Positions 1 through 58,161 of a stretch of 64,000 nucleotides of DNA are shown one piece after another. Position numbers and translations under genes: made by a program. Numbering within the stretch: the first letter of the stretch is position 1; each line of letters begins with the position of its first letter. The DNA lies in the IMG/VR virus record IMGVR_UViG_3300045988_166360, positions 1 to 64,000 of that record; one strand, written 5' to 3'. Under the pieces are notes generated by a model. It was given only the letters and a program-made list of their open reading frames with translations. It was not told the DNA's origin and ran no database searches. Source of the DNA: a virus.

Positions 1-38
1 GGATACCACGGATACCACGGATACCACGGATACCACGG
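1..38. repeat. Tandem 9-bp repeat (GGATACCAC)x4 at window edge; in frame with the downstream giant ORF it would encode (DTT)n
   Basis: Exact 9-mer periodicity read directly; frame of ORF 71..5806 stays open back to base 2. Confidence 0.9.
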
Positions 39-10132: not shown

Positions 10133-10694
10133 CTTCTACACGTTGTTGCAAAACTTCCTTGCTGATATAGGAGTATTCAGAAAGCTTCAACACTTTCTGG
10201 CTTACGACACTGGCCAGGACTGTAAAATACCTGAAGGTATTAAAGGGTTCCTTGGATTCCTTGGATTCCTTGGATTCCTTGGAATGATAGGAGACAAGCA
10301 TATGAACAGCCATAACAAGAACAATAGCACGGACTATCGTATTTGTATCTGTGTACATGGCACACGCTTTTCCTTCATTCTCAATTTCCTGAGTGAACAT
10401 GACATAATCCCGGAGTTGAGTGACATATTCCACCGCCTTTTCCAGCATAAATTTAATCCCTTGAACCGGGGGAGGCACGACTCCGGGGAACAGGGAAGCG
10501 GCATGTTCCCCAATCGCCACGGCTTTTTCAGCCACCTCTTCCGCAGAAGCATTTTTAGCCAAGCCGAAATCAGGGATGGATTCCCAAGCCAGTTCCAGTT
10601 CTGCCTTAAGCTTAATGAATTCCGGCTCTTTCATCTCCTGGGCCACCGCCTCTGTAACAGCGTCAAGGACAATTTCTTTTTTAATATCAGTCAT
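10104..10694 (-). CDS. Hypothetical protein (196 aa) containing a (KES)4 tripeptide repeat
   Basis: Translation KESKESKESKE encoded by the 9-bp tandem array at 10249-10288. Confidence 0.55.
   Translation of the reverse strand: MTDIKKEIVLDAVTEAVAQEMKEPEFIKLKAELELAWESIPDFGLAKNASAEEVAEKAVAIGEHAASLFPGVVPPPVQGIKFMLEKAVEYVTQLRDYVMFTQEIENEGKACAMYTDTNTIVRAIVLVMAVHMLVSYHSKESKESKESKEPFNTFRYFTVLASVVSQKVLKLSEYSYISKEVLQQRVEDAKSKIILN
10249..10288. repeat. Tandem 9-bp repeat (CCTTGGATT)x4, i.e. (AATCCAAGG)n on the coding strand
   Basis: Exact periodicity read directly; member of the GGAAYCC-core repeat family. Confidence 0.9.
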
Positions 10695-18342: not shown

Positions 18343-18650
18343 TCTGATTTGTTATTTTTTATATAGCGGCGGGGGAACCTTTCCCCGTTCGCATGACTTC
18401 ACTTTATCGCATTTTTTCAGCACGTCAACTATTTTTTTTATTTTGTATGACAAAGCTATAACCCCTTTATTTAGAGCTCTTTAGGTAGTCTAACATATGG
18501 AGGTCAAAAGCTGATTGCCGTTCCCGCCCCATACCTTCCCGCTTACGATATGAAGCGAGAAAATGACAGGGGGAGAAAAGAAAATTCCTACCTAAATAGT
18601 AGGAATTAGGAAGAAAAGAATGGGCCGCCGAAACGGGCGGCCCCAGTGAA
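18343..18650. repeat. Copy 1 of a 310-bp near-identical direct repeat (terminator hairpin plus early promoter TTGACG-N16-TAAAGT with -10 at 18401-18406)
   Basis: Near-identical to 19209-19520 except for a few indels and an inverted hairpin loop (GAAAC vs GTTTC). Confidence 0.9.
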
Positions 18651-19208: not shown

Positions 19209-19520
19209 TTTTCTGATTTGTTATTTTTTATATAGCGGCGGGGGAACCTTTCCCCGTTCGCATGACTTCACTTTATCGCATTTTTTCAGCACGTCAACTA
19301 TTTTTTTTATTTTGTATGACAAAGCTATAACCCCTTTATTTAGAGCTCTTTAGGTAGTCTAACATATGGAGGTCAAAAGCTGATTGCCGTTCCCGCCCCA
19401 TACCTTCCCGCTTACGATATGAAGCGAGAAAATGACAGGGGGGGGAGAAAAGAAAATTCCTACCTAAATAGTAGGAATCAGGAAGAAAAGAATGGGCCGC
19501 CCGTTTCGGCGGCCCCGGTG
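19209..19520. repeat. Copy 2 of the 310-bp terminator-promoter cassette (promoter -10 at 19270-19275, -35 at 19292-19297 on minus strand)
   Basis: See copy 1. Confidence 0.9.
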
Positions 19521-19522
19521 AA

Positions 19523-19951
19523 TTAAAGAATGCCCTGAAAAACCCGGTAGATTTTACCGCTTCCCGGCATGGTGCGGGGGTCATGCAGTGCGTAGGGGGT
19601 TAGTCCAAAAGGGCACCATGCGAGAAACTCACTGATTTCCAAGGATTTCAGGCAATCAACGGCATTGACGGCGGGGGAATCCGTAACTACGATTAAATCA
19701 CGCGCGCCCGCGCGGATAAGTTGGAAATTTTCATAAGTTTTTGAGTATCCGGGGGTTTGATACGCCGCCATTAACACTATCGCTTTATCAATTTCCGCGG
19801 GGGTCAGCTGATAAGATTTGACGCGGACTTCTGCGAGGCCCCATGATTCAACGGTCAACGTCCAAACCGTTTGATTGTCAATGCGTTCCCGTTCAACCTT
19901 CCAATTCAAATGCAGGTCTTCAATGTGCCCTTTCGTATGTACTGTCTTCAT
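19523..19951 (-). CDS. Hypothetical protein (142 aa), first gene of the leftward early array
   Basis: ORF immediately downstream of the leftward promoter at 20003-20030. Confidence 0.55.
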   Translation of the reverse strand: MKTVHTKGHIEDLHLNWKVERERIDNQTVWTLTVESWGLAEVRVKSYQLTPAEIDKAIVLMAAYQTPGYSKTYENFQLIRAGARDLIVVTDSPAVNAVDCLKSLEISEFLAWCPFGLTPYALHDPRTMPGSGKIYRVFQGIL

Positions 19952-20002
19952 TTTTAATGATTTCTATTGTTTTATTTCCCCCGGATTCCGGGGAACAGGG
20001 TC

Positions 20003-20030
20003 ATCATATCAGGGGCGGGGGCCTTGTCAA
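20003..20030 (-). promoter_or_regulatory. Leftward promoter TTGACA-N16-TATGAT at the edge of the control region
   Basis: Read on reverse complement: -35 at 20025-20030, -10 at 20003-20008. Confidence 0.55.
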
Positions 20031-20040
20031 CCCACGGTTT

Positions 20041-20076
20041 CCGCGGTATCCGTTGATTCCGCGGTATCCGTTGATT
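20041..20076. repeat. Direct 18-bp repeat (CCGCGGTATCCGTTGATT)x2
   Basis: Read directly. Confidence 0.9.
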
Positions 20077-20141
20077 CTTAGGTAGTTGTGATTGTGTCAT
20101 ACAAGATTTTCCGGGTTCCGTGGGCACAGGGGATTCCGTGG

Positions 20142-20196
20142 CTTCCGGGGGTTCCGGGGGTTCCGGGGGTTCCGGGGGTTCCGGGGGTTCCGGGGG
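20142..20196. repeat. Non-coding tandem 9-bp repeat (TTCCGGGGG)x6, i.e. (GGAACCCCC)n on the minus strand
   Basis: Read directly; same GGAAYCC-core family as the coding arrays. Confidence 0.9.
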
Positions 20197-20280
20197 TCAA
20201 CTTTTATACACCATACCTATACCCCTATGGGTATAAGAGTACAATATATAGGGCCCCCCCCCCTCAAACTGGTCAAATAT

Positions 20281-20380
20281 TTGACTATTTCGAAATCGAA
20301 ACAATTAAGAAAGGGTAACTGTTTCCTTTCTTAAATAGTTAAAGAACATTGACTATTTCGAAATCGAAACAATTAAGAAA
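20281..20380. repeat. Two exact 32-bp direct repeats (TTGACTATTTCGAAATCGAAACAATTAAGAAA) separated by a TTAAGAAAGG/CCTTTCTTAA hairpin
   Basis: Copies at 20281-20312 and 20349-20380. Confidence 0.9.
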
Positions 20381-20803
20381 TCTTAACTAATCGGCTCAAT
20401 TTTGCATTATATGTATTATGCGAAGTATGGAAGGGAAAAGCTTTAAGAATCAACAGGTTACGCTAAACAGGGTGCCAATAGGAAACAAACTGGGAAAAGG
20501 GGCGGCTGAATGTTAGAGCACCCGCGGAACCCACTGTTCCCCATACACTTAGGAAGAAACGGGCACCAAGAAATCAACGGAATCAGGGAATCAAAAGGAC
20601 ATTATGGAGACCGTCCGGGTTAGAGTTACTCGAACCTGACTTCTGGGAAAATCTGGAACTTTTTGAAAAATTTTTCAACCAAAAAAGACCAAATACCACC
20701 ACGGTTTCCAGGGCTCCGGGGAAGCAAAGTGGCCATTGTAAAAGATTAACTCAAATTTTTTCGGGGAAGACACGGGGCTAAATACCCCTTCTGGGCACAG
20801 AGG

Positions 20804-20828
20804 CTGTCAAGAAAAATCGACACGCGGC
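20804..20828. repeat. Copy A of the exact 24/25-bp element TGTCAAGAAAAATCGACACGCGGC (palindromic core TGTC-N10-GACA)
   Basis: Exact match to copies B and C with unrelated flanks. Confidence 0.9.
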
Positions 20829-20927
20829 GGGCTCGGGAGACAAACAGAGGTGAGGACTAAACAGTGAAGATAACGTAGGTGTTCTTAAACAACCTGCGGA
20901 CTAAAAACAGTCATGAAAGTATACAAA

Positions 20928-20967
20928 GTTCTAATCAGTTCTACCTGGTTCTACTGGGTTCTAATGC
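20928..20967. repeat. Four GTTCTA hexamers phased at exactly 10 bp (helical repeat)
   Basis: GTTCTAATCA GTTCTACCTG GTTCTACTGG GTTCTAATGC. Confidence 0.8.
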
Positions 20968-21106
20968 AACGAACCCCTGCTGAAACCCAAAGGGTTAAGA
21001 GGATTCAGGGTTAGAGTTACTCGAAGGTTCAGAAATAAAATCAAGTTACCGTCACAGTGACGATAAACTCCCTTCTGACTGACGACAACGTTTACAAACA
21101 GGAGGT

Positions 21107-21131
21107 CTGTCAAGAAAAATCGACACGCGGC
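21107..21131. repeat. Copy B of the 24/25-bp element TGTCAAGAAAAATCGACACGCGGC
   Basis: Exact match. Confidence 0.9.
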
Positions 21132-21158
21132 CTGGCTTCATTTTCATCCACTTCATGC

Positions 21159-21186
21159 TTGACAGAAGAGAAATTTCTGCTATAAA
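21159..21186 (+). promoter_or_regulatory. Near-consensus sigma70-like promoter TTGACA-N16-TATAAA inside the non-coding region
   Basis: -35 at 21159-21164, -10 at 21181-21186; no protein gene follows before the terminator at 21373. Confidence 0.6.
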
Positions 21187-21192
21187 AGCCTT

Positions 21193-21373
21193 CGGTTCTC
21201 GAAGAGGTCTGCCGGGGCTCACTCCCCCAACTGTAGACCCGCCCTTTACTCAGGTAGCCGCAACAGACAATGACGAGTAAAACTGTTGGCCGGGCAGACC
21301 TGGTGTCGGGTTCGAGAACCAAACTTCCATTGGATACCCCGGAGGTCGCGGCAACGGCTTCCGGGGTTTTTTG
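21193..21373 (+). ncRNA. Candidate small RNA 1 (about 180 nt) bounded by promoter 21159-21186 and intrinsic terminator 21337-21373
   Basis: Inferred from promoter plus terminator spacing; the only ORF here runs through the terminator. Confidence 0.4.
21337..21373 (+). terminator. Intrinsic terminator (stem CCCCGGAGG/CTTCCGGGG with one mismatch, followed by TTTTTT)
   Basis: Read directly. Confidence 0.6.
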
Positions 21374-21398
21374 TTGTCAAGAAAAATCGACACGCGGC
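21374..21398. repeat. Copy C of the 24/25-bp element TGTCAAGAAAAATCGACACGCGGC (directly abuts the terminator T-tract)
   Basis: Exact match. Confidence 0.9.
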
Positions 21399-21494
21399 AG
21401 AAACAAAAATCCGGGAGAGATTCCCGTAATGGCAAACCTCTCCCGGACAGAGTGACGAATAGTGAATAGTGAAGCGAATAGAAAGGAGGTGCTC

Positions 21495-21671
21495 ATGCAA
21501 AGAATCTTAACCAGAGCGGTTTCTGAATCCACGTCGCGTAGTGGCTTCAACAGGGGTTTTGCACAGGCAACGGCACCACCTTATCAGTCATTGAGTTTGT
21601 TGTCAAGGATATTGATTCCCGACCTGAGTTCTATAAAGAATCCCTTTTCCCGCAATGTTACCCTACCGTAA
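21495..21671 (+). CDS. Small ORF (58 aa) preceded by the only perfect Shine-Dalgarno sequence in the window (AAGGAGGTG at 21485-21493, 5-nt spacer)
   Basis: SD and ATG read directly; product is Ser-rich low complexity; could instead be an RNA element. Confidence 0.3.
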   Translation: MQRILTRAVSESTSRSGFNRGFAQATAPPYQSLSLLSRILIPDLSSIKNPFSRNVTLP

Positions 21672-21967
21672 CCGCGTTAATTGGGAAAAACGGGTTCGTG
21701 GTTCTGGGAGAAAAAACCACGCCGTTTTAATTAGGAGTAACTCTGTGAAAATAAAATTTAGGAATTTACAATGTTACCCAACCTTTCCACGCCTTTCCTA
21801 TTTCGTCTCCTTAGTTTGTCCGTCTCCCATCTTCAAAGCGGTTTTAGATAGGGGTAACATTGCAAGAACAGGAACAAATGGAAACATACACAATACAGAA
21901 ATCATCACATAAAGGAGAAACCCAAACAGAAAGTTGACAAGAGAAGGCAAGGAGGAACCCAAAAAAC

Positions 21968-21996
21968 TTGACTCAGAAAAAAGGTCATGATAACAT
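21968..21996 (+). promoter_or_regulatory. Sigma70-like promoter TTGACT-N17-TAACAT
   Basis: Read directly; about 110 nt upstream of the terminator at 22104. Confidence 0.4.
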
Positions 21997-22002
21997 CACT
22001 CA

Positions 22003-22146
22003 GGTTCTGTTCCTTAAAAGAGTATCAGACGAAAAAGGTTAAAATGTGTTCTGAGTCTTGTCAGGACAGGCCCATAATCGCGTTCATGGTTTCTGATTAG
22101 AGTCTGAGGGAGTCTATCCGAAAGGGTGAGGCTCCCTCAGTTTTTG
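22003..22146 (+). ncRNA. Candidate small RNA 2 (about 140 nt) ending at the strong intrinsic terminator
   Basis: Promoter plus terminator spacing; no plausible ORF. Confidence 0.35.
22104..22146 (+). terminator. Strong intrinsic terminator: perfect 9-bp stem CTGAGGGAG/CTCCCTCAG followed by TTTTT
   Basis: Read directly. Confidence 0.75.
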
Positions 22147-22339
22147 TAGTTAAAGAGGAAGCACATACACCAAACTCAAGCCCTAGCCCGAGAAGGCCCT
22201 TCCCTCATTGAAGCTAAACCAGTTATGCAATTTGTAGTTGAAAAAATAGTTTTGAAATAGTAGGCAAAAATTACGTCTAAACTACGCGTAAGTGACTGAT
22301 TATTAAATGCGGGCCTTTATTTGTAGTAAATAGTAGTAG

Positions 22340-22440
22340 AGAAAAAAATTGTATATATATATAATTTATAATATATAAAAAAAAAAAAAATAAAAAAAAT
22401 ATATTTACTGTATTACTATTTACTATTTAAAAAAAAAAGA
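22340..22440. repeat. AT-only low-complexity tract ((TA)n, A13, A8, A10) - candidate DNA-unwinding element or bend
   Basis: Read directly. Confidence 0.8.
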
Positions 22441-22736
22441 CAGTTAACCTGTTGAAAATCAACCTGTTATGAATAGTTTTACCAAAAACTATTTTTGAAC
22501 CCCCGGAGTCCAAGGAACCCCCGGAATCCACTCTCCGACATCATGTAACATGTTCGAGATTAGTGGCTTACAAAAATAGTTGTGACCTCCTTTCTGCTTC
22601 AACTACAAAACGTAATTTCTTCTATTTCAATGACTTCTCATCCACACACAGCTCTCATCTACCCGGGTGTAGTCCAGCAAAGAGCTGTCCTCACCCTCTG
22701 AATGTCAGTTTCAGATACAAACCTGACACTTTTCGC

Positions 22737-22765
22737 TTGACTTCCTCCACTTCGTCTGCTAAGGT
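22737..22765 (+). promoter_or_regulatory. Rightward promoter TTGACT-N17-TAAGGT; ATG of the first plus-strand gene lies 9 nt after the -10 (near-leaderless)
   Basis: Read directly. Confidence 0.5.
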
Positions 22766-22773
22766 CTCCTTCC

Positions 22774-23457
22774 ATGACCGAAACATCTAATCTGGACCTG
22801 AGCCACTACCGACAATACCTGCATATAGACCCCCAATACCTTTGGGACGAAAAAGAGCAATGCTTTCAGACCCGCAGTATGAGAGCCCAGGAATCCACGG
22901 ATTCCGTTGTGGCCTGCATTCTGAAAGTCTTTTGTGAATCCCCTCTCTATGTATCTCTCGAAAGACTGCATCGGCTCTTCTGTCTGATAAAAGGAAGAGA
23001 AGCGGACCCCACGGAATCCGCGGCCCTCAAGGAGCTTTTTCTTATTGCTTTTTATCCTGTAAGTGCTGAGCTTCGTCTCCCGACTTATTGCAGTTTTCAA
23101 TACGTGTGGAGCAAGGGCGGGTATGCAATGGCACATTATAGCGAACATCTCCGTTGGGAATTTAATAATGAATATGGCATCTACACCGACAAAGTTCTTC
23201 CTGTCAATAAGGTTCCTTTGTGCAATCTACTGGACATCAAACAGAAACGGTGCTATCCCATGCTTCTGGCCATCATCCATGAGCTGAACGGCAAATCCCT
23301 TGCCATACCCGAACTGCTCAGGAATCCTTATTTGTCGAAGTTCAGCAGGAATACCGTACTGAAACATGCCGAAGATGTATCAGCCCGGTATGGGCTTAAA
23401 ACATCGTCAGGCCGCCCTGCGGTTTTGAATTCCGACTGCAAAATTTTCTATTACTGA
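22774..23457 (+). CDS. Hypothetical protein (227 aa), first gene of the rightward arm
   Basis: ORF; start of co-oriented replication operon. Confidence 0.6.
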   Translation: MTETSNLDLSHYRQYLHIDPQYLWDEKEQCFQTRSMRAQESTDSVVACILKVFCESPLYVSLERLHRLFCLIKGREADPTESAALKELFLIAFYPVSAELRLPTYCSFQYVWSKGGYAMAHYSEHLRWEFNNEYGIYTDKVLPVNKVPLCNLLDIKQKRCYPMLLAIIHELNGKSLAIPELLRNPYLSKFSRNTVLKHAEDVSARYGLKTSSGRPAVLNSDCKIFYY

Positions 23458-26451: not shown

Positions 26452-26916
26452 ATGAATAGTGTAACCGAACCGAATGAACATGACATGACCCTGTACTCCG
26501 AAGATGGAGTTCCGGTCATTCGCATTCCCCGCCTCTGCCCCTACTGCCACCAAAGCCATGTGCAGTTTGAGACAGAAGTGTACTCATCCCAGACCGTGAT
26601 ATATCTGACCTGCCCTGTCTGTGGAATTTCGACTGCCCCTTATAAGCCGGGCCCGGAGGCTTCCGTAGTTACTGCCCAGTATTTTGTCATGAAGCAGTGG
26701 CTTCGGCAGATTGCCATGCTTCCGGCATTCATGCTGTTGCGCCCCGGGGACGACTTGCTTCTCAAGGACTCTGCTCACGTAACCGCAGTAACCACGCCGC
26801 TGGAATCTGACCATAATTTTCTGGTGATGGACAAGGAGGGCCGGGTCTTTATGATAGCTCCCTCTGACATTGACTCCGCGCTTAACGACCGCATCAAAAG
26901 AATCCTTAAACACTGA
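26452..26916 (+). CDS. Hypothetical protein with zinc ribbon (CPYCHQSH...CPVCG) (154 aa)
   Basis: ORF, motif. Confidence 0.55.
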   Translation: MNSVTEPNEHDMTLYSEDGVPVIRIPRLCPYCHQSHVQFETEVYSSQTVIYLTCPVCGISTAPYKPGPEASVVTAQYFVMKQWLRQIAMLPAFMLLRPGDDLLLKDSAHVTAVTTPLESDHNFLVMDKEGRVFMIAPSDIDSALNDRIKRILKH

Positions 26917-26920
26917 AACC

Positions 26921-27307
26921 ATGAACGACTTGATTGTTGCGCCCACAACCATTGCAGATTATATTGACCGGACTTTCAAACAGATGGGGCTGGTGGAATC
27001 TTCTTCCGACCTTCTCCGACACCTGCAATGGGAGATTGAAGAGTATAAGGACGCGGAAGGTTCTGACAGAGCCGCCGAGGCTTTTGATGTAGCCGTGCTT
27101 GCCGTGCGTCTCCTTCATGCCGTGCTGAATGAAGCGGAGGATTACAGTGCCGCCAATTACAGAGCGTTTGAGAAAGAGAATGAGATACGGAAGCGGATGC
27201 GTTATGCCCTCAAGTTTTTTAAGGAAAGGAGCGGTGAGAACCTCCCCGGGGCTACTCCCTACGAGTGCTATGCCGACGCGAAGAAACACCTTAACCAGAT
27301 GGACTGA
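26921..27307 (+). CDS. Hypothetical protein (128 aa; ORF opens at 26870 but first non-overlapping ATG is 26921)
   Basis: ORF tightly coupled to the polymerase gene. Confidence 0.5.
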   Translation: MNDLIVAPTTIADYIDRTFKQMGLVESSSDLLRHLQWEIEEYKDAEGSDRAAEAFDVAVLAVRLLHAVLNEAEDYSAANYRAFEKENEIRKRMRYALKFFKERSGENLPGATPYECYADAKKHLNQMD

Positions 27308-29211
27308 TGGAAAGTGCTACTGCTTTGTCTCTCCCGAAGGTGCCTGGCTATGACATGGAGATTACGGAGGACCAGACGAAACTGGCGGGCCCTGTCCTTG
27401 CGATTGACTTTGAAACTTTTTATGAAGGGGAATATTCCCTTAAACGAATGGACCCCCGGTCCTATTGCACCCACGAGAAGTTTGACGCATATGTCATGTC
27501 GGCCTACGATGGGAAGTATTGCTGGGTGGGGCATCCTAAAGAGTTTAACTGGGCAGAAACCACCAGAGATAAAATCATTGTTTCTTTCAACGCCAGCTTC
27601 GACTACGCCGTTTACCTGTTTGGACTGAAAGCCCCCGGAAGCCACGGAATCCCCTGTACCCCCGGATTCCGCACACCCTTCACTGCCTGGCTCTGTTCAC
27701 GCGCGGCCTCCAATTATCTGTCCATATATGGCTCACTGTCGGAGATAGTGCTTCGTTTATGGAACATTGCGGTCAGCAAGGAAGTCCGGGCCAGGGCAGA
27801 GGGCATCGACTTCCGTACCCTGGATGCGATTCCCGAAGATATGAAGGAATACGTGGCGGGCGACTCCTACTACTGTTACGCTGTCTGGGACAAGTTTGAG
27901 CGTTTCTGGCCGGAGCATGAACGCGAGTGTTGGCTGAACACCTGCATCATGGGATGGAGGGGCGTGCCGACCAGCCGCGCGGCTGTTGAGGAAGGACTGG
28001 AACTGCTGAAGGAGGCAAGGGAACAGTATAAGGAAGCCATCCCCCTGGAAAAGAAACTTTCCCTTCTCCAACTCCGCAAAGCCTGCCAGGATTTAAATAT
28101 CCCCCCTCCTGAAACAACCAGCAAGGCCAGTGAGAAATTTACGGACTGGCTTGAAACTTACGGAAAGCTTATTCCCTGGGTAAGCCTTTTGGGCAAGTAC
28201 CGGAGCGTCAACCGTCTTATTTCTCTGACGGAGCGCATGCTTTCCCGTGTCTATACCGACCATGAAGGGGTGGACCGGATTCCTTACACGCTTACCTACT
28301 GTGGAGCCAGTACGGGACGCTGGACAGCCGGAGGTGACAAATTAAACCTGCAACAGCTTAACCGGGATAAGGTTGGGGAGTTTAGCCAGCGGGAACTTAT
28401 TCAGGCACCTCCCGGGTATAAGCTGGTGGTCTGTGACTGGGCCGGGATTGAAGCCCGCCTCACTGCCTGGCTTTGCGGGCAGGAAAAAATTCTTGAAACC
28501 CTCCGCGCAGGTGAAAAGGACATCTATGCCGCTAACGCGAAAGGCTGGGGCCTTATCCCTGATTCGGTGACAGATTTCAAGGCATACTGCAAGGAGACCC
28601 CCGGGCAGGAAAATCTTCGCCAGCATGTGAAAGCCGGGGTGCTTGCCTGTGGTTTCAGTGCGGGATGGTCTGCGATTCAACGCACCAATCCGGGCATGGA
28701 CCGAAACCAGTGCCAGGCCATTGTCGATATGTACCGGAGCCGGAGCCCGGAGGTGGTCGCGTGGTGGCGGGAACTTGACGCACTGGCGGCCCGCGGCTAC
28801 CGGACTCCTTCCCACAGTTTTGCCCTCACCCTGCCCTCCGGGCGAAAGCTGTATTATCGTAACTGTTACAAGAAGCTTATCCAGCCCAAAGACGGGAGGC
28901 GGCCCTACTTCGCAACCTGTGTCAATTTCGGGAAAAAGACTTCCATTGTAAATACTAACCTGTTGAGCAACAACAATATCCAGGCTATTGCCCGCGACCT
29001 GATGGTTCGCGCTTTCAACAGATTCTGCAAGGAATTGCCCGGGGCCAGCCCGTGTCTTCTTGTCCATGACGAAGCTGTGGTTATGGTTCCCGCGGACAGC
29101 GCGGAGGAATACGCACAGCGGATTGAGGAAATCATGGAGGACACTCCCCAATGGGCGAACACCCTGCCTCTCCTTGCCGAACCGGAAATCATGGAGAAGT
29201 ATAGGAAATGA
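27307..29211 (+). CDS. Family A DNA polymerase with 3'-5' exonuclease domain
   Basis: Exo I (LAIDFETF), Exo II (NASFDYAV), pol motif A (DWAGIEARL), motif B (RQHVKAGVLACGFSAG), motif C (LVHDEAVV) in translation. Confidence 0.9.
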   Translation: MESATALSLPKVPGYDMEITEDQTKLAGPVLAIDFETFYEGEYSLKRMDPRSYCTHEKFDAYVMSAYDGKYCWVGHPKEFNWAETTRDKIIVSFNASFDYAVYLFGLKAPGSHGIPCTPGFRTPFTAWLCSRAASNYLSIYGSLSEIVLRLWNIAVSKEVRARAEGIDFRTLDAIPEDMKEYVAGDSYYCYAVWDKFERFWPEHERECWLNTCIMGWRGVPTSRAAVEEGLELLKEAREQYKEAIPLEKKLSLLQLRKACQDLNIPPPETTSKASEKFTDWLETYGKLIPWVSLLGKYRSVNRLISLTERMLSRVYTDHEGVDRIPYTLTYCGASTGRWTAGGDKLNLQQLNRDKVGEFSQRELIQAPPGYKLVVCDWAGIEARLTAWLCGQEKILETLRAGEKDIYAANAKGWGLIPDSVTDFKAYCKETPGQENLRQHVKAGVLACGFSAGWSAIQRTNPGMDRNQCQAIVDMYRSRSPEVVAWWRELDALAARGYRTPSHSFALTLPSGRKLYYRNCYKKLIQPKDGRRPYFATCVNFGKKTSIVNTNLLSNNNIQAIARDLMVRAFNRFCKELPGASPCLLVHDEAVVMVPADSAEEYAQRIEEIMEDTPQWANTLPLLAEPEIMEKYRK

Positions 29212-30572: not shown

Positions 30573-31794
30573 TAAAGTACCAGCGGATAATTCCGCGGAC
30601 ACTCACAGTAAATACAGCCCGAGTTCGATTGCCATGCTCGCAACCTGTCCGGGATATATTCCCCGCCCTATGACACAGGATGAAGAAGAGGATGAATTTT
30701 CCCCCTCTGCCGTGGGCACCCGAGTCCACGGAGCCCTGGAAACCCAGAACCCGGATATGCTTTTAACCCGGCATGAGCGTTCCCTTTATAACGCGGCCAA
30801 CAATATGCTGGGCATTTTGCGGGAAATGTTTACCAAAGAGGTGGGAACTGCGGAGTTCGAAGCACTGCCCGAACACAAGTTCCCCGGTATCCGTTTTAAC
30901 CCGGATGACCCGGAACAGACGGGGACTGCCGACGTTTTATTCCGACATGGAAATACCTCTATGATTGTGGACTACAAGATGGGCATTGTGCCCGTGTCCA
31001 ACCCCGAGGTTAATAGTCAGTTTATTTATTATGGGTTGTTGGAATTTGCAGAACGCCCTGAATGTGAAAGGATTATACTTGCAGTAATTCAACCGAGCCA
31101 GCAGGATGCGCTTAAGACCGCCGCCTTCTACCGGACGAAGGAATCACCGACATTTTCTTCCGACATGCCCACGGTATCCATGGATGCCGTGGAAGCCGTG
31201 GAATCCGTGGCTTCCGTGATTATGCGCCGCTGTAGGGATGCGGATAATCCGTATGCCTATTCTTCGTCGCCTCATGTCTGTCCCTACTGTGACCGACTGG
31301 CGACTTGTAAGAAGATTACCAGCATGGCCAGGAACTTCTCCCTTAAAGTATTGAAGGATAAGGAGTTAGCGGAAGGCATGATTGATAGTGTCGGGTCTGC
31401 CATGGATAACCCGGAAACCCTGGGTTCCCTTCTTTCCTTTGCAAGCATTATCAGCGAGGCGAATAAGGTGCATAAGGATTATGCCAAAACCCTGTTCTCC
31501 TGTGGGGTGGATGTCCCCGGCTGGAAGTACGCGAGCCGGGGAAGCACCGTTAAGGTGGACAATGATTCCTTCCGTGCCTACGTGGAACAATTTTTATCTC
31601 CGGAGGATATTCTGGACAACATATCCAGGCTCCCAGTCATGAAACTCCTGGACCTTCTGTTGGAGAAGTCCATGGAATCCGGGGTTTCCGGGAAGGATAA
31701 GAAGGCCGCTAAGGAATTACTGTTGAAGGAATTACAGGACCTGGGCATTGTACGTGAGGTGAAAGGCGCAATGGCTCTGTTAAAAATGAAATGA
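30559..31794 (+). CDS. PD-(D/E)XK nuclease of the Cas4/RecB-like family (phage exonuclease)
   Basis: DVLFRHGNTSMIVDYKMG core (D...D/E.K) and C-terminal Cys cluster CPYCDRLATC typical of Cas4-like FeS nucleases; alternative start at 30634. Confidence 0.6.
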   Translation: MTANNKVPADNSADTHSKYSPSSIAMLATCPGYIPRPMTQDEEEDEFSPSAVGTRVHGALETQNPDMLLTRHERSLYNAANNMLGILREMFTKEVGTAEFEALPEHKFPGIRFNPDDPEQTGTADVLFRHGNTSMIVDYKMGIVPVSNPEVNSQFIYYGLLEFAERPECERIILAVIQPSQQDALKTAAFYRTKESPTFSSDMPTVSMDAVEAVESVASVIMRRCRDADNPYAYSSSPHVCPYCDRLATCKKITSMARNFSLKVLKDKELAEGMIDSVGSAMDNPETLGSLLSFASIISEANKVHKDYAKTLFSCGVDVPGWKYASRGSTVKVDNDSFRAYVEQFLSPEDILDNISRLPVMKLLDLLLEKSMESGVSGKDKKAAKELLLKELQDLGIVREVKGAMALLKMK

Positions 31795-40394: not shown

Positions 40395-40707
40395 TATCTG
40401 GCCCACCTATACTGAGGAAGCGTTCAGGACCAACCCGAAAGCCCAGGGTTCCCTGTTCGAATTGTTGCAGGACCCTGTGATGCAGGAGGCCCTTCTTATT
40501 ATCCAGTCTAAATTGAATGCGTCCCTTCCATCCACTGTAGAAGCGGCGGCTCTTGCCGGAGCCTATGCCGCGGGAGCTCAGGCCGTAATCTCCGGCCTCC
40601 ATAGACTGGCGCAACCCATGGAATCCACGGAAGCCCCGGTAGCCATGGAACCCGTGGCTACCGTGGAACGGAACGCCTGGATTAACTCACTTAAACCTAT
40701 TATCTAA
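40387..40707 (+). CDS. Hypothetical small protein (106 aa)
   Basis: ORF trimmed to ATG overlapping portal stop. Confidence 0.5.
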   Translation: MSNIWPTYTEEAFRTNPKAQGSLFELLQDPVMQEALLIIQSKLNASLPSTVEAAALAGAYAAGAQAVISGLHRLAQPMESTEAPVAMEPVATVERNAWINSLKPII

Positions 40708-45353: not shown

Positions 45354-47132
45354 ATGGATATTAACGACTATATAAACGGGACTCCTATTGAGCCGGGGGT
45401 TACGTACAAACTGGGGAATGCGGATGCCAATACCGCGTGGACCCTGGTTTCCGACCGCCCGTGCCTCTTTAAGCTGTCAGCCACGGCACCCACGGATTCC
45501 GCGTGGTCCAATGTCACGGAGGAACAATATATCATTAACGGAGACGTTTCCAATCAGGTTATTGAAATCACGTCTCCCAATGGCAAGTATTTTGTCGTAG
45601 CCACCCATGACCAGGATTCCGCGGCTACCGTGGAATCCGCGTATGCTACGGTGTCTCTTAAGCCGTTGGGTTTCAATGTAGAGGACTCATATGAAACAAC
45701 TCCGTTGAATGGAGACGGCCCGGTAACTGAAGGCTTTTATAAGATTTCCAACCTTGAATCCGGCAAGCTTTATTCCTTCAACGTAACCCCCGACGCGGGC
45801 GGCCTTAAGGCTACCAATCCCTCGCCGGAGTATGCTTTCTCCCTGTTCAGCGTAGATGGAAGCAACAATCCCAAGGCATTACTGGCCGCAGGGATTACGG
45901 AATGCCAGCTGGTATTTGTAGCCACGGAATCCACGGCAGTGCTGAACCTGTCCTCCACGCTTCCCGACAGCGAGTTTTTTGTCTGCATCCGAAATTTTAG
46001 TTTAGGCTCTGGTGGTTCCGGGTTCGACCCTTCTTCTGACCAGAGTATCACCGGAGCCTGGACCTTCTCCAATATTACCGTACCTACTCCCACGGCCTCT
46101 GGACAAGCGGCTAACAAGGGTTACGTGGATTCGAACTTCGTTTCGAAGTCTAATAATGAAACTATTGCAGGTGTTAAGACTTTTTCTTCGCCGCCTGTAG
46201 TTCCCAGTCCGACTGCGAATAATCAGGCCGCGCCGAAAAGCTATGTCGATTCCGCAGTAGATTCTGTTCACGAGTTTGACCCCGCAGAAGCCCAAAACAT
46301 TACCGGGTCTTGGAGCTTTTCGGATGGATTGACCAGAACCACAAAAGCATCCCCTGCAAATACAGATATCATGAATAAGGAAATGAGTGATGCTGTATAT
46401 GTACCTAAAGCGGGGGATTCTACTGTAGAGGGCACTAAAACCTTTTCCGGTTCAATTACCTTAGCTAATGAGGCTCCACTTGTTTTAGGGACAGGAACGG
46501 AGGCCGTAAAAATTTCGGGGTCAGGAACCGGGTCTGCTGTTATTGAAGGAGGCAACGATGCAACTTTGGATGTAGCTGTTCCCGTATCATTACAGGAAAC
46601 CGTAGCGATAACCAAGTTTACTTCAGATATATCTGAAATACCTTCTGCTCAGTCTCCGGTTACTCTGTGGGAACTTCAGAGCTTGAACGACGGTTGTTTG
46701 ATAACTCAAACAATCCCTAGCGGGAATCTCACTCTTACGGCTAAGGCATTTACTTCTGGTATAACTATTCAAAATAATGGATGGGCTATTACCAATAGTG
46801 CAGGACAATGCAACGGAGGTTACATTTTTCGAGGGGGAGTTACTTTTAGTCAAACTATTACAGTAGCTCAAACTGCTACCTTTAATGGTTCGGTAACGTT
46901 AGGCAACTCAGCCAAGATTTCTGGCCCTACACTGGACGAGTCGGCTATTTCTGACACGACATATATCCCTGTAGGCAACTCTGACCAGAAATATATCAAG
47001 TATAAGGAACTGACTAAAGCAGATTACGATGCTTTAGAAACGAAAAGCAATTCAACTATTTACTTTTTAACTGACCAGACTATGTGGGCTATCGGCACCA
47101 AGGAATTGGTGACTTCCGATATGCCCGCTTGA
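45354..47132 (+). CDS. Tail fibre protein (592 aa) with phage tail-fibre repeat-like segments (KGYVDS..., KSYVDSAVDSV)
   Basis: Repeated xYVDs motifs characteristic of tail-fibre repeats; Ser/Thr/Gly-rich. Confidence 0.6.
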   Translation: MDINDYINGTPIEPGVTYKLGNADANTAWTLVSDRPCLFKLSATAPTDSAWSNVTEEQYIINGDVSNQVIEITSPNGKYFVVATHDQDSAATVESAYATVSLKPLGFNVEDSYETTPLNGDGPVTEGFYKISNLESGKLYSFNVTPDAGGLKATNPSPEYAFSLFSVDGSNNPKALLAAGITECQLVFVATESTAVLNLSSTLPDSEFFVCIRNFSLGSGGSGFDPSSDQSITGAWTFSNITVPTPTASGQAANKGYVDSNFVSKSNNETIAGVKTFSSPPVVPSPTANNQAAPKSYVDSAVDSVHEFDPAEAQNITGSWSFSDGLTRTTKASPANTDIMNKEMSDAVYVPKAGDSTVEGTKTFSGSITLANEAPLVLGTGTEAVKISGSGTGSAVIEGGNDATLDVAVPVSLQETVAITKFTSDISEIPSAQSPVTLWELQSLNDGCLITQTIPSGNLTLTAKAFTSGITIQNNGWAITNSAGQCNGGYIFRGGVTFSQTITVAQTATFNGSVTLGNSAKISGPTLDESAISDTTYIPVGNSDQKYIKYKELTKADYDALETKSNSTIYFLTDQTMWAIGTKELVTSDMPA

Positions 47133-47190
47133 TGTGGGGGGGGGAGCTATTCCCCCCCCCCCACGGAACTAATTTACTGCAACAAAAGAC

Positions 47191-57437: not shown

Positions 57438-58161
57438 AATCAAAAAGATTCAACAGCTGGTAGGCGTAACTGCTGACGGCATTATAGGCCCTAAAACCAT
57501 TGACGCAATTCTTAAGCGGTTGACTTCGGATTCCATGGGTACCGGGGAATCCGTGGATGCTTATGAAATCCGTAACCGGATGGCCGCTAAAATCCTGAAC
57601 ATGGAAGACTATAAAATTACGGGGCCAGAATCCCTGCGGGTTACGCGCCTCCCCTCCGGTGATGGAGGCGGCACCCGGGAAATCGCAGGTATCTGCGACG
57701 GGATTGAACCGGAAGTGTTTAACCGGATTAAATCTCTGCTGGACAAGGGACTGCGGGAAGAAGCATGGGAGGACTGCCTCAGCTATGTACTTGAGAATAC
57801 GGCCACCATTGCAAGCTATTTTCCGAATTATGGTTTTGGCTACGAATTCATGGTGCGCGACCTGGCCTTTAACATGGGCAATGCCGGAGCTATCAAAGTT
57901 ATCCAGGGCATGGCCAACCGTGAGGGCACTGACGAGATTGCAGTGGATGGGAAGTGGGGCATTAAAACGCAGACAGCTTTGCTGGGGCTGACCTCAACCC
58001 TGCCCGAAGACTACGTGGTTAATGCTCTGGACAAAGCGGCCCGAACCCGTTACCAAAGTATTGTGGATGCCAATCCCGTCAAGGAAAAATTCCTCAAGGG
58101 GTGGCTCAACAGATGCGACGACCGCCTGGCTTTTGCTAATACTCTTGTGTCAAGCAAATAA
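57421..58161 (+). CDS. Peptidoglycan-binding-domain protein, endolysin candidate (GH108-like with PG_binding motifs) (246 aa)
   Basis: IQQLVGVTADGIIGPKTIDAI and DGKWGIKTQTALLG match the PG_binding_1/3 pattern lQ..lG...DG.iG..T..a; GDGGGTREIAGI resembles the GH108 DPGG.TkyGI block. Confidence 0.5.
   Translation: MTQNNKIKKIQQLVGVTADGIIGPKTIDAILKRLTSDSMGTGESVDAYEIRNRMAAKILNMEDYKITGPESLRVTRLPSGDGGGTREIAGICDGIEPEVFNRIKSLLDKGLREEAWEDCLSYVLENTATIASYFPNYGFGYEFMVRDLAFNMGNAGAIKVIQGMANREGTDEIAVDGKWGIKTQTALLGLTSTLPEDYVVNALDKAARTRYQSIVDANPVKEKFLKGWLNRCDDRLAFANTLVSSK

Follow-up and report, generated by a model that had tools for sequence, protein, structure and literature searches.

The window (the whole 64-kb stretch of phage DNA analysed) contains at 19952-22773, between two divergent gene arms, a conserved non-coding region, hereafter the hub, which most likely holds a replication origin, early promoters and two or more genes for small regulatory RNAs. 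We consider that there is a somewhat better than even chance that the hub is an origin and regulation region with accessory small-RNA cassettes, conserved as an architecture throughout its phage family. Its anatomy, its conservation and its absence of coding were established by computation. No gene lies within it in the 64-kb window, the flanking genes beginning at 19951 (-) and 22774 (+), and its longest ORF has 85 aa. When the hub ORFs were scanned against PHROG families, no meaningful family was found, the sole weak matches being to the translated 9-mer repeat. A Shine-Dalgarno-like box precedes just one hub ORF, that from ATG 21495, which is disrupted in relatives (GTG-TGA in L031 and a 2-nt indel in L045), and substitutions in relatives are spread evenly over the three codon positions (26/25/26). 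On these grounds the hub is non-coding, as an earlier note on this DNA had proposed when it described a gene-free span. Block D, where the Shine-Dalgarno-like box is found, is 76-78% identical in L031, L045 and L188.

A gene-free hub of 2.5-3.5 kb was found, among the related contigs, in every member of the family, which consists of uncultured human-gut phages with otherwise tightly packed genomes of ~70 kb; the hub between divergent arms described earlier is thus real and conserved in these contigs. Its family-wide parts are a sigma70-like promoter directed leftward, TTCCGGG arrays that are G-rich (possible G-quadruplexes) and a 16-bp palindrome; block A beside an IHF-consensus site, block B and one to four same-strand copies of TGTCAAGNAAAATCGACAYGCGGC; and a TA/A-rich tract with lineage-specific short repeats inverted across it and a second IHF-consensus site. 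The cassettes between the 24-mers vary by lineage, and the two in the window are promoter-terminator small-RNA units. Almost all elements listed in the earlier note were recovered (Table 1), including three copies of the 24/25-mer spaced by ~270-300 bp (20804, 21107, 21374), four GTTCTA hexamers phased at 10 bp, two 18-mers (2.2 copies), two exact 32-bp repeats (20281 and 20349) around a hairpin, the A/T low-complexity tract flanked by inverted arms, and both promoter-terminator units.

Table 1. Features of the hub and a candidate RNA target, in window coordinates (dot, no strand)
Feature	Position	Strand	Remark
Leftward early promoter TTGACA-16-TGnTATGAT	20003..20030	-	Serves 142-aa gene (19523-19951)
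18-mer TTCCGCGGTATCCGTTGA, 2.2 copies	20039..20077	.	Abuts -35 box of leftward promoter
9-mer array GGGTTCCGG, 9.4 copies	20113..20197	+	~6 copies near-perfect
Palindrome ATACCC-CTAT-GGGTAT, operator-like	20219..20234	.	Sole exact copy in window
Two repeats TTGACTATTTCGAAATCGAAACAATTAAGAAA, 32 nt exact within 40-nt 93% pair	20281..20388	+	Bracket hairpin 20307-20332
Block A	20399..20491	+	30-mer, then IHF-consensus site, then conserved stretch ACAGGGTGYCARTRGGAAACA
Block A 30-mer GCATTATATGTATTATGCGAAGTATGGAAG	20404-20433	+	Invariant or single substitutions in 27 aligned sequences
IHF-consensus site AATCAACAGGTTA in block A	20448-20460	+	Position kept across lineages
Block B ACCACCACGGTTTCC, GGCTCCGGGG, CAAATTTTTT, CCTTCTGG	20678..20803	+	Conserved family-wide; runs into first 25-mer
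25-mer copy 1, CTGTCAAGAAAAATCGACACGCGGC	20804..20828	+	25/25 match
Cassette X	20829..21106	+	Window lineage only; GTTCTA x4 and quasi-palindrome
GTTCTA x4 in cassette X	20928, 20938, 20948, 20958 (span 20928-20963)	+	Exact 10-bp period
Quasi-palindrome TTAGAGTTACTCGAA	21011-21025; second copy 20620-20634
25-mer copy 2, CTGTCAAGAAAAATCGACACGCGGC	21107..21131	+	25/25; sRNA1-cassette homology to L031, L045 begins here
sRNA1 unit	21159..21373	+	Predicted RNA ~180 nt, ~21193-21373
sRNA1 promoter TTGACA-16-TATAAA	21159-21186	+	Kept in relatives
sRNA1 intrinsic terminator	21336-21373	+	13-bp stem + T6; kept in relatives
25-mer copy 3, CTGTCAAGAAAAATCGACACGCGGC	21374..21398	+	24/25; immediately 3' of sRNA1 terminator
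Block D, non-coding	21477..21544	+	Not a gene; Shine-Dalgarno-like box AAAGGAGG at 21482-21489
Degenerate fourth 25-mer TGTCAAGGATATTGATTCCCGAC	21601..21623	+	Aligns with fourth copy of L031, L045
CAATGTTACCC x2 and inverted GGGTAACATTG	21653, 21769; inverted 21852 (span 21643..21872)	.
sRNA2 unit	21968..22146	+	Predicted RNA ~145 nt, ~22003-22146
sRNA2 promoter TTGACT-17-TGaTAACAT	21968-21996	+	Hexamers kept, spacer diverges
sRNA2 loop seed CGTTCATGGTTTC	22081-22093	+	In hairpin loop
sRNA2 terminator	~22106-22146	+
Origin-like core	22231..22630	.	TA/A-rich tract with flanking motif copies
AAATAGT copies, left of tract	22244, 22255, 22328
TA/A-rich tract	22340-22440	.	Between inverted arms 22324-22345 and 22404-22425
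ACTATTT copies, right of tract	22415, 22422, 22488
Second IHF-consensus site AATCAACCTGTTA	22457-22469	+	Position kept across lineages
Two GAACCCCCGGA units	22497-22530	+	Inverted relative to left array
Rightward promoter TTGACT-17-TAAGGT	22737..22765	+	Ends 8 nt before ATG 22774
Candidate sRNA2 target GAAACCATGAACG	26915..26927	+	Spans ATG 26921 of 128-aa gene; outside hub

A generic consensus scan of the hub gave promoter-like (6 vs 4.6 expected) and terminator-like (7 vs 4.6 expected) sites at numbers not above chance, and particular sites were therefore taken as real because they are conserved in relatives and not from the scan counts. Across the relatives the promoter hexamers are kept while the spacers drift, and the promoter-terminator pairs, whose terminators are also kept, are conserved as units in other lineages, as the earlier note had anticipated. 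Shine-Dalgarno sites precede only 5 of 59 genes, a scarcity that suggests a Bacteroidota-like host, and one would not expect sigma70-type hexamers to function there, which is in tension with our promoter calls.

At the left edge, the leftward promoter matches 11/12 consensus positions and has an extended -10, and L003 carries TTGACG-17-TAAATT at its position; the 142-aa protein downstream gave no informative match in a fold search. The adjacent 18-mer array is 100% conserved in L118, and its opposite strand reads TCAACGGATACC, similar to an ATCAAC motif in block A. Of the earlier claim of six 9-mers the array stood and the count did not, there being ~9 units (9.4), ~6 of them near-perfect. A (G5-TTCC)x6 G-quadruplex motif spans 20147-20196 inside this array, which is reduced to ~3.5 units in L118, and potential G-quadruplex arrays occur at the matching place in L003, L031, L065 and L118. 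The 9-mer unit belongs to a CCNNGG motif with a 9-bp period found genome-wide, and the array is the densest instance of this dispersed motif. The reported C11 tract proved to be C10 (20254-20263) and is absent from a close, 92%-identical relative (L118 comparison), and the palindrome is placed 162-196 nt left of block A in ~49 family loci. The segment with the 40-nt repeat pair (starting at 20281 and 20349) reaches a fold z-score of -5.8 on both strands, which indicates symmetry at the DNA level; it is conserved in L118, and in the majority lineage iteron-like arrays (19-mer x7 and 21-mer x4) occupy its place.

Blocks A and B are conserved family-wide. Block A is 75-87% identical in all family loci and shows no excess RNA structure, and its IHF-like site is inverted in L031/L045 types with its position kept. 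From block A to block B the fold z-scores are ~0 on both strands, suggesting that these blocks act at the DNA level. Four IHF-consensus matches occur in the window, two of them within the hub, the consensus being that of E. coli.

The 24/25-mer is a signal kept almost unchanged throughout the phage family. Its family consensus always lies on the primase strand in 1-4 copies per hub, and many relatives carry only one or two. In the window the copies are spaced by 303 and 267, the ends of the element (TGTC...GACA) form a weak dyad, and no further CTGTCAAGAAAAATCGACACGCGGC was found elsewhere in the 64 kb, allowing up to 3 mismatches. The earlier note had offered the 24-mers as binding sites of the AEP primase-helicase, a proposal that we disfavour: the site hardly varies between lineages that share only 27-64% identity in this enzyme, the copies are neither tandem nor phased, and often there are only one or two of them. 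Judged by sequence, the 24-mer is probably not the site of this enzyme.

Whole cassettes appear to come and go between these elements. The window, L031 and L188 differ by insertions or deletions of exactly one 25-mer plus cassette, L031 and L045 lack cassette X by such a clean indel, and L118 has it, its GTTCTA array intact. The sRNA1 cassette ceases to be homologous to L031 and L045 at the 3' end of 25-mer copy 3, and the CAATGTTACCC motif and its inverted copy are retained in L031 and L188. The sRNA1 unit is 89-91% identical in L031, L045, L110, L130 and L156, compared with ~72-78% for neighboring genes in the same relatives. Neither L188 nor the majority lineage has it, and we now regard it as an accessory cassette and not as a fixed part of the hub; because of these absences, its high identity could reflect recent cassette transfer rather than constraint. 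The RNA-fold check suggested by the earlier note was favorable for both units, which fold better than shuffled sequences and show some compensatory base changes. For sRNA1, the body (21192-21322) has a fold z of -3.10, none of 200 shuffles folding as well, and a helix that reads GCCC/GGGU in one form and ACUC/GAGU in another differs by one compensatory pair and a wobble change, covariation that carries little statistical weight as it comes from 3-4 lineages only.

The sRNA2 unit (fold z = -3.05) is conserved in three lineages, being 75-77% identical in L031, L110 and L156 and also present in L188. When four sequences are aligned, compensatory changes affect 8 of 39 pairs and the seed lies within a hairpin loop, this covariation likewise carrying little statistical weight with 3-4 lineages only. 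The conserved loop YCAUGGUUU is complementary to start codons of replication-arm genes, namely that of the primase-helicase (9 nt) and that of the gene at 26921, just upstream of the DNA polymerase gene. The latter complement is perfect over 13 nt in the window; the L031 lineage has 11 nt of it and L188 has 8+3 nt, the match in L188 weakening without a compensating change. By shuffling, P(longest match >= 13) = 0.066.

A replication origin is plausible and, from sequence features, would be best placed at the TA/A-rich tract, in a core that adjoins the replication module. The short motif flanking the tract is particular to each lineage and stands in direct orientation on one side and inverted on the other, and the same flank geometry is built from AAGGACC/GGTCCTT in L003 and TGGAACA/TGTTCCA in L045 (10.3 kb), where GGAACA occurs 4/4 left of the tract and TGTTCC 6/9 right of it. 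Thus, of the earlier origin or partition-site claim, the origin part holds as plausible, given the lineage-specific repeats around the tract, and the partition part does not, no partition genes having been found among the genes scanned. No DnaA-box cluster was found, no replication initiator was identified among the candidates (the predicted model of a 227-aa protein, with pLDDT 42, was too poor to use), and cumulative GC skew, proposed earlier for locating the origin, marks the strand switch only, giving no precise origin position. In the Logan assembly of this phage there is a break at 22434, within the tract, and block 22457..22530 is 70% conserved in L002, L004 and L005. The rightward promoter lies so close to its gene that the mRNA would be nearly leaderless; L045 has TTGACA-17-TAAGGT at the aligned place and L003 has TTGACA-17-TATCAT immediately before its ATG.

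From these features we infer hub transcription, origin firing, protein binding and RNA targeting as follows. Divergent sigma70-like promoters at the hub edges would start early transcription, the left one preceded by tandem arrays that are likely protein-binding (18-mer x2 and G-rich 9-mer x9) and the right one producing the nearly leaderless mRNA of the replication arm. The TA/A-rich tract may serve as the DNA-unwinding element, with an IHF-like bending site just to its right, and the lineage-specific repeats flanking it are probably where each lineage's own initiator would bind, whether this is the product of the first rightward gene, itself lineage-specific, or the SF3-type primase-helicase, or the two together. 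Block A (30-mer and IHF-like site), block B and the 24/25-mer would operate at the DNA level and be read by a lineage-invariant factor, either of the host or a highly conserved phage factor, and the 24/25-mers may also mark joints of cassette gain and loss. The two cassettes of this phage would be small-RNA genes, each with its own promoter and intrinsic terminator: sRNA1 a Y-shaped structured RNA, and sRNA2 an RNA whose loop could pair across the start codons of the 26921 gene and the primase-helicase, which would keep ribosomes from these starts in a genome that makes no use of Shine-Dalgarno sequences.

It is possible, although we consider it unlikely, that the hub is chiefly an array of exchangeable non-coding RNA cassettes with the 24/25-mer as a functional junction, the origin being secondary or elsewhere. 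The element could then be a recombination site or hot spot for swapping small-RNA cassettes, in line with lineage breakpoints that coincide with 25-mers, differences made of whole 25-mer plus cassette units, and L188, which joins an L031-like left half to a window-like right half with other cassettes between its three 25-mers. However, any 25-bp direct repeat allows unequal crossing-over without being a dedicated site, and the scan of the genes turned up no recombinase or integrase. It could also be an RNA-level signal at a transcript edge (processing, protein loading or anti-termination): it is strictly strand-specific and sits directly after or before terminator-bearing units, its 3'-half variants are A-to-G (GACA to GGCA or GACG), which would preserve U-G pairs in a + strand UGUC/GACA hairpin, and the majority lineage has other promoter-terminator units sharing the terminator stem CCCCGGAGG/CTTCCGGGG. 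Yet this putative hairpin is no longer than 4 bp and lacks covariation at the outer positions. Many relatives have a single copy of the element, and inter-copy cassettes go down to 91 nt with no recognisable RNA gene. The junction reading would also leave the AT tract with its lineage-specific inverted repeats unexplained. That slippage and duplication in a change-tolerant region produced the repeats as by-products, with only the edge promoters functional, seems to us very improbable: the variable 9-mer copy number, the missing C10 tract and scan counts near shuffle expectation agree with it, but the block A 30-mer and the 24-mer are almost invariant where proteins share 25-64% identity, the promoter-terminator pairs are conserved as units, and all lineages of these tightly packed genomes retain the 2.5-3.5 kb gene-free span.

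A dedicated factor (phage RNA polymerase, sigma factor, repressor or activator) might use the 24/25-mers as one to four operators or promoters that time the switch to the replication genes by rightward transcription, a reading that we regard as rather improbable. The motif, contiguous over ~24 bp, strand-specific and near-invariant in one to four copies, resembles single-subunit RNA-polymerase promoters or long operators, every copy is directed at the replication arm, and its weak dyad is of the kind seen in dimer operators. Nevertheless, Pfam, PHROGs and PDB sequence searches revealed no RNA polymerase or sigma domain in the large proteins, the DxDGD motif was not found, the element is confined to the hub and missing before other gene blocks, and hub-adjacent candidate regulators are 25-27% identical across lineages in contrast to the invariant site. 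Spacing to start sites is not fixed, since a good sigma70-like promoter begins 28 nt downstream of copy 2 whereas copy 3 immediately follows a terminator. Less probable still is that a linear genome has its physical ends, or a packaging signal (cos/pac, terminal repeats), in the hub, with the repeats serving terminase recognition and not replication. Many independent ~70 kb assemblies do end within the hub, 100-640 nt left of block A or at the AT tract, and IHF-like sites stand beside repeated boxes, an arrangement that resembles lambda cosB. However, the break points are scattered, in tandem arrays or the low-complexity A/T run, as expected from assembly failure and not from a fixed end; the window sequence is continuous through the hub, the terminase genes are 11 kb off (~33.3 kb), and the loci examined have no terminal duplication.

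The gene-free span 19952-22773 between the leftward and rightward gene arms (the hub) makes up about 4% of the genome, and the earlier claim that it lacks plausible protein genes was borne out: its longest ORF has 85 aa, and the hub ORFs that were scanned have no real protein-family match (none to PHROG families). A hidden gene at ATG 21495, preceded by a strong Shine-Dalgarno-like box, was rejected because the ORF is interrupted in relatives and coding is not conserved, and the long ORFs in the hubs of relatives were dismissed as genes because their variation is spread evenly over the three codon positions. A conserved gene-free stretch of such size is unusual in phage genomes, which are tightly packed. 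Among relatives drawn from IMG/VR, ENA and JGI human-gut metagenomes, and Logan assemblies (typical contigs 69-71 kb), compared as the earlier note had proposed, every one that extends far enough shows 2.5-3.5 kb free of genes between these two arms, and these regions share a common order of elements (see table). All six elements that the earlier note had listed lie where it had placed them, with two small corrections (the C run and the number of 9-mer units). Promoter and terminator scans with generic consensus sequences performed no better than on shuffled sequences; the listed promoters and terminators are credible because they are conserved in relatives. Rfam searches at the gathering threshold gave no match in the window or in six related loci, and the E-value mode returned a single, spurious lncRNA match (E = 1.6); a tRNA/tmRNA scan found none. 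The hub is thus real and more general than could be known from one genome, and its earlier interpretation is partly right: small RNAs together with an origin remain the best reading, a partition site is unsupported, and the 24-mer is probably not a primase-helicase site.

Features of the hub and of other regions of the window, with their place in the order shared by the family
Feature	Position in window	Place in shared order	Remarks
Tandem CCACGGATA copies	6-38		at least three, at window start; same 9-bp motif family; upstream of GTG start assigned to 1911-aa ORF
Genome-wide 9-bp motif, examples	10250-10282, 22886-22905, 27633-27672, 31169-31210, 40616-40666, 45481-45640, 57533-57556, 63101-63143, 63301-63368		
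Duplicated intergenic modules	18401-18643, 19270-19515		about 870 nt apart
82-aa ORF	19336-19584		overlaps terminators; probably not a gene
Leftward sigma70-like promoter		1	TTGACA-16-TGnTATGAT; in L003 (majority lineage) TTGACG-17-TAAATT
TTCCGGG-type arrays		2	right of leftward promoter
(G5-TTCC)x6	20147-20196		G-quadruplex motif
Palindrome ATACCC-N4-GGGTAT		3	fixed distance from block A
Block A	20399-20491	4	near-invariant 30-mer at 20404-20433
Variable TTCC-rich stretch		5	
Block B	20678-20803	6	
IHF-consensus matches in hub	20448, 22457		
24/25-mers	20804, 21107, 21374	7	copies 1 to 3
Variable cassettes	20829-21106 (cassette X)	8	
sRNA1 promoter	21159-21186		TTGACA-16-TATAAA
sRNA1 terminator	21336-21373		13-bp stem + T6
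sRNA2 unit	21968-22146		promoter TTGACT-17-TGaTAACAT
sRNA2 terminator	~22106-22146		hairpin of ~16 bp + T5
TAnnTTTG boxes	22247 (+), 22490 (+), 22578 (-)		
Arms of inverted repeat	22324-22345, 22404-22425		flank the A/T tract
TA/A-rich tract	22342-22401	9	pure A/T 60-mer
DnaA-box match	22638		8 of 9 positions
Conserved block with GAACCCCCGGA units		10	right of TA/A-rich tract
Sigma70-like promoter		11	ends 2-8 nt before first rightward ATG
First rightward gene			227-aa orphan, opens rightward arm
Primase-helicase			954 aa; BT4734-like N-terminal domain + VapE/D5-type helicase; rightward arm
128-aa gene	26921		proposed sRNA2 target
Remaining rightward arm			family-A DNA polymerase, helicase, exonuclease, large terminase subunit, structural genes
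G and C runs	47136-47162		directly after 592-aa tail-protein gene (45354-47132)

The leftward arm (5.8-19.95 kb), which faces the rightward one, consists of small genes, ThyX and DUF3310 being recognisable there. Two of its intergenic regions are duplicated modules standing before paralogous genes of 183 and 182 aa, each with two tandem terminators and an identical TTGACG-16-TAAAGT promoter; the 142-aa gene adjoining the hub accordingly forms a monocistronic unit. In the rightward arm, a run of at least eight G is followed close by with about 11 C behind the tail-protein gene, which may form a G/C hairpin terminator. At the nucleotide level the hub matches neither INPHARED phages nor PLSDB plasmids; no match turned up for the terminase, and the identity of the polymerase to those of cultured phages does not exceed 27.5%. 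Judged from these comparisons, this is a phage family without a cultured relative; it recurs in human-gut metagenome assemblies of many independent projects. A literature search on intergenic origins of gut phages gave no description of it, and a contig scan for a host or prophage copy with an 18-mer of block A gave chance matches only. Only 5 of the 59 predicted genes have a Shine-Dalgarno-like sequence and leaders are A-rich, a scarcity that suggests a Bacteroidota-like host or translation style. The conserved TTGACA/TATAAT-type promoters of the hub, present also in the left arm, are in conflict with such a style, and Bacteroides-type TAnnTTTG boxes are not enriched upstream of late genes. 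Three of these -7 boxes lie around the A/T tract, two of them pointing into it, one per side; they are part of AAAAATAGTTTTGA / AAAACTATTTTTGA repeats.

The case for an origin centers on this tract, the most A/T-rich 60-mer of the window, which lies between inverted arms and has AAATAGT to its left and ACTATTT to its right. TA-rich tracts occur at the equivalent place in L003, L031 and L045 (related loci), and L003 has the same geometry with AAGGACC/GGTCCTT and L045 with TGGAACA/TGTTCCA, the left-hand copies of the motif being direct and the right-hand ones inverted in each; in the 10.3 kb of L045, all four GGAACA copies lie left of the tract and six of the nine TGTTCC copies right of it. In layout, these flanking repeats are as expected of an origin, being clustered putative initiator sites beside a candidate unwinding element. 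The first rightward gene adjoins the tract and also varies from lineage to lineage; for the 227-aa protein, none of the other lineages yielded a homologue. One layout beside replication genes, built with a different motif in each of three lineages, is what an origin co-evolving with its initiator would be expected to show, and the arrangement resembles, by analogy, origins served by SF3 helicases. The cumulative GC skew, proposed earlier as a way of placing the origin, did not locate it, as only the strand switch is visible. DnaA boxes do not cluster in the hub, which has the single match in the table. A partition site, the other possibility raised for the region, could draw on the repeat arrays, which are present, but neither the flanking genes nor the left arm showed a partition protein family. 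The hub interrupts many assemblies, and the Logan contig of the window's own phage starts at 22434; the breaks are scattered in tandem arrays or the A/T run, a pattern more readily explained by failed assembly than by a fixed genome end. A candidate origin of this kind could be used for replicons or for reading replication activity from metagenome coverage.

Blocks A and B form a second conserved unit of the hub. The 30-nt stretch of block A is invariant or carries single substitutions in 27 aligned sequences, including lineages whose primase-helicases are only about 30% identical to that of the window. A structured RNA from block A to block B was rejected on fold z-scores of about 0, with no excess folding on either strand, and on alifold, which favoured neither strand; because of this lack of RNA folding, we read the unit as a putative DNA-level platform for protein binding. 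A sigma-54 promoter in block A was also rejected, the required GG at -24 not being conserved (the position varies between C and T). The E. coli IHF consensus WATCAANNNNTTR, which may not be that of the host, has four matches in the window, two of them in the hub, and most lineages have matches at these two relative positions (one of them inverted in the L031 and L045 types). Such positional recurrence is good evidence for a predicted bending-protein site.

The two small-RNA units predicted in the earlier note both have the promoters described there, with hexamers conserved and spacers diverged in relatives, the sigma70-like consensus being one that may not be the host's; both terminators persist in relatives, the sRNA2 stem showing a compensatory change. 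The sRNA1 unit is 89-91% identical in three other lineages, including hexamers and terminator, and the nearby genes are 72-78% identical (DNA); part of this high identity may reflect recent transfer. Its body is predicted to fold into a three-way junction closed by a 9-bp stem (z = -3.10; none of 200 shuffles folds as well), and one helix changes from GCCC/GGGU to ACUC/GAGU, giving 1 compensatory pair among 53 in an alignment of four sequences from few independent lineages. Neither L188 nor the majority (L003-type) lineage has it, and it is therefore accessory; its complements in the phage are not above chance (P = 0.77). The sRNA2 unit is present in the window, L188 and the L031 type, and has a fold z-score of about -3.1, with 8 of 39 predicted pairs maintained by two-sided changes (again four sequences and few independent lineages). 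Its conserved loop YCAUGGUUU is complementary to AAACCAUG, and the complement spans the start codon of the 128-aa gene over 13 nt (the L031 type has 11 nt, L188 8+3 nt), with a further 9-nt complement at the primase-helicase start. Judged by length alone, the 13-mer has P = 0.066 in a shuffle test; its position at the start codon and the presentation of the predicted seed in a loop raise interest. Pairing of sRNA2 with this start codon is put forward as a hypothesis, and stays one because L188 shows no compensating change in the pairing. Two further short units of promoter and terminator, with the same terminator stem, occur in the majority lineage, so that small-RNA units appear to be a general feature of the hub whose content varies. 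Targets for the L003 small RNAs were sought and rejected, as the 12-13-nt complements in the L003 primase gene are not kept in L004. The hub thus offers two new predicted small RNAs, one with a proposed target, together with promoter and terminator parts.

At the left edge of the hub, the repeat arrays reported next to the leftward promoter are in place, although the C11 tract is 10 bases long and a 92%-identical relative lacks it, and the 9-mer array counts about nine units rather than six. The 18-mer pair abuts the -35 box of this promoter and the 9-mer array lies 83-167 bp upstream of it. The array includes one of only two plus-strand G-quadruplex motifs in 64 kb (at least four runs of three or more G, loops of 1-7 nt), and the predicted potential is found at the corresponding position in other lineages, although their unit numbers differ. 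CCNNGG-NNN-CCNNGG, with its 9-bp period (units such as GGAATCCAC and GGATTCCGT), occurs throughout the genome: codon-block shuffles predict about 2 matches outside the hub, and 58 are present there; GGAWTCC is found 44 times against 11 expected. In genes, 46 of 54 CCNNGG matches are in one reading frame (xCC-NNG-GNN), encoding peptides such as ESTDSV, MESTEAPVAMEPV and TGTTGTT. The hub array is the densest, non-coding instance of this genome-wide motif, whose orientation flips within the hub. The four phased GTTCTA hexamers lie on one helix face and are unchanged in L118.

The 24/25-mer (core TGTC-N10-GACA, consensus TGTCAAGNAAAATCGACAYGCGGC) is found only in the hub and always on the primase strand, in one to four copies per hub with spacings of 91-379 nt (303 and 267 in the window). 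That it is a binding site of the primase-helicase, as had been suggested, is improbable in view of its copy number, its spacing and its near-invariance against primases of 27-64% identity; because it is far more conserved than the primase-helicase or the adjoining 142-aa protein (25-27%), a lineage-specific initiator is an unlikely reader. The repeats are neither tandem nor phased, unlike iterons, and a promoter for a phage RNA polymerase was rejected as no such polymerase was found among the large proteins. The motif keeps no fixed distance to promoters, copy 2 preceding the -35 box of sRNA1 by 28 nt and copy 3 abutting the sRNA1 terminator. As a lambda-type nut site it would offer only a 4-bp UGUC/GACA stem with a 10-nt loop and flanks that do not covary, and no N-like protein was identified. 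CRISPR arrays have regular repeats of 23-50 nt, spacers of 26-72 nt and cas genes nearby; the spacings here are far longer, and the scanned genes have no cas domains. Lineages differ by clean units of one 25-mer plus a cassette (X in the window, Y in L031 and L045, another sequence replacing the sRNA1 cassette in L188), so that the motif is at least a recombination joint, and its invariance implies an added function, putatively as a DNA site or RNA signal. It is conceivable, though improbable, that the hub serves as a dedicated platform on which non-coding RNA cassettes can be exchanged, and that the strand-specific 24-nt junction, kept nearly constant throughout this family of abundant human-gut phages, delimits small-RNA and other non-coding units swapped between lineages. 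This is a minority reading, more novel than that of an origin with small RNAs; if true, each phage would carry its own set of regulatory RNAs beside a common origin.

The hub of L188 (1-2480, Logan ERR13950694) is a recombinant, with a left part 88% identical to the L031 lineage and a right part (sRNA2, A/T tract, 230-aa gene and primase) 84% identical to the window; behind its first 25-mer, a GTGTATNRAG-type tandem array stands in place of sRNA1. After the 25-mers, majority-lineage hubs have a non-coding block of about 1.4 kb (L003 1233-2647, L065 6359-7818 and some 39 further loci); its identity is 88% between genomes with primase genes that are unalignable at the DNA level. Its apparent ORFs of 100-270 aa vary equally at the three codon positions, and an internal duplicated module ends in GGCGCGTTCTAGGGYAGGACCCTYGATTAAATTC; it has no Rfam match. 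A large non-coding RNA is one possible reading of this block, and a dense region of protein binding is another; sequences 91% alike on average were uninformative input for a covariation test of RNA structure. Some conserved factor must recognise the block A 30-mer and the 24-mer, both of which can be used as markers to find members of the family, and the hub as a whole gives concrete, testable handles in a gut phage family that lacks a cultured relative.

Among known systems, integron attC cassettes and CRISPR arrays also have same-strand conserved copies of about 25 nt separating units that differ between relatives. However, the hub units are non-coding and of 91-379 nt, far longer than CRISPR spacers and unlike ORF cassettes, and the hub has neither cas genes nor an integrase, only 1-4 repeat copies and no extended imperfect symmetry of the attC type. 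If the cassette idea holds, the hub would function much as an integron does, with RNA genes in place of protein genes, and would give phages a new means of diversifying their regulatory RNAs. The omega heptads of pSM19035 and parC of plasmid R1 are contiguous short-repeat operator/centromere arrays, and like them the hub has about nine contiguous short repeats just upstream of a promoter; it differs in that no ParA/ParM/ParR-like or ribbon-helix-helix protein was detected, and in that the 9-bp unit is scattered through coding regions genome-wide and the array is also a G-quadruplex motif. Iteron origins of lambda and plasmid type with IHF sites (ori-lambda, pSC101 and P1 oriR) share with the hub repeats, an IHF-consensus site (an E. 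coli consensus, which may not be the host's) and an A/T-rich tract in a non-coding region beside replication genes, whereas the hub has no phased tandem iteron block at the window's A/T tract and no DnaA-box cluster, its tandem arrays lying 2 kb away beside the leftward promoter.

A further likeness is to origins such as the SV40 large-T core origin and the papillomavirus E1 origin, whose initiators are SF3 helicases, and to P4 ori/crr, used by the alpha primase-helicase. In these, as predicted for the hub, an A/T-rich unwinding tract has short recognition repeats opposed on its flanks; SF3-type origins, like the hub, adjoin the gene of a primase/SF3-type (D5/VapE-like) helicase, and P4 likewise has a second conserved cis region about 2 kb away (blocks A and B in the hub). 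The repeats themselves are unlike the P4 octamers or GAGGC pentamers and differ between lineages; the likeness is one of layout. Lambda OOP, P22 sar, P1/P7 c4 and P4 CI RNA are phage-encoded antisense or trans-acting small RNAs, which, like the predicted hub RNAs, are short, have their own promoter and intrinsic terminator and lie in an early control region; a loop complementary to translation start regions, as in sRNA2, would correspond to the mode of action of c4 and sar. Unlike them, the hub units are not antisense to an overlapping gene but lie in a gene-free region 0.7-5 kb from their candidate targets, and they are lineage-dependent accessory cassettes without sequence or Rfam similarity to known families. 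Although the elements of the hub have no known homologues, the kind of region that they appear to form, a putative origin combined with an early-control region carrying regulatory RNAs, is a known one.
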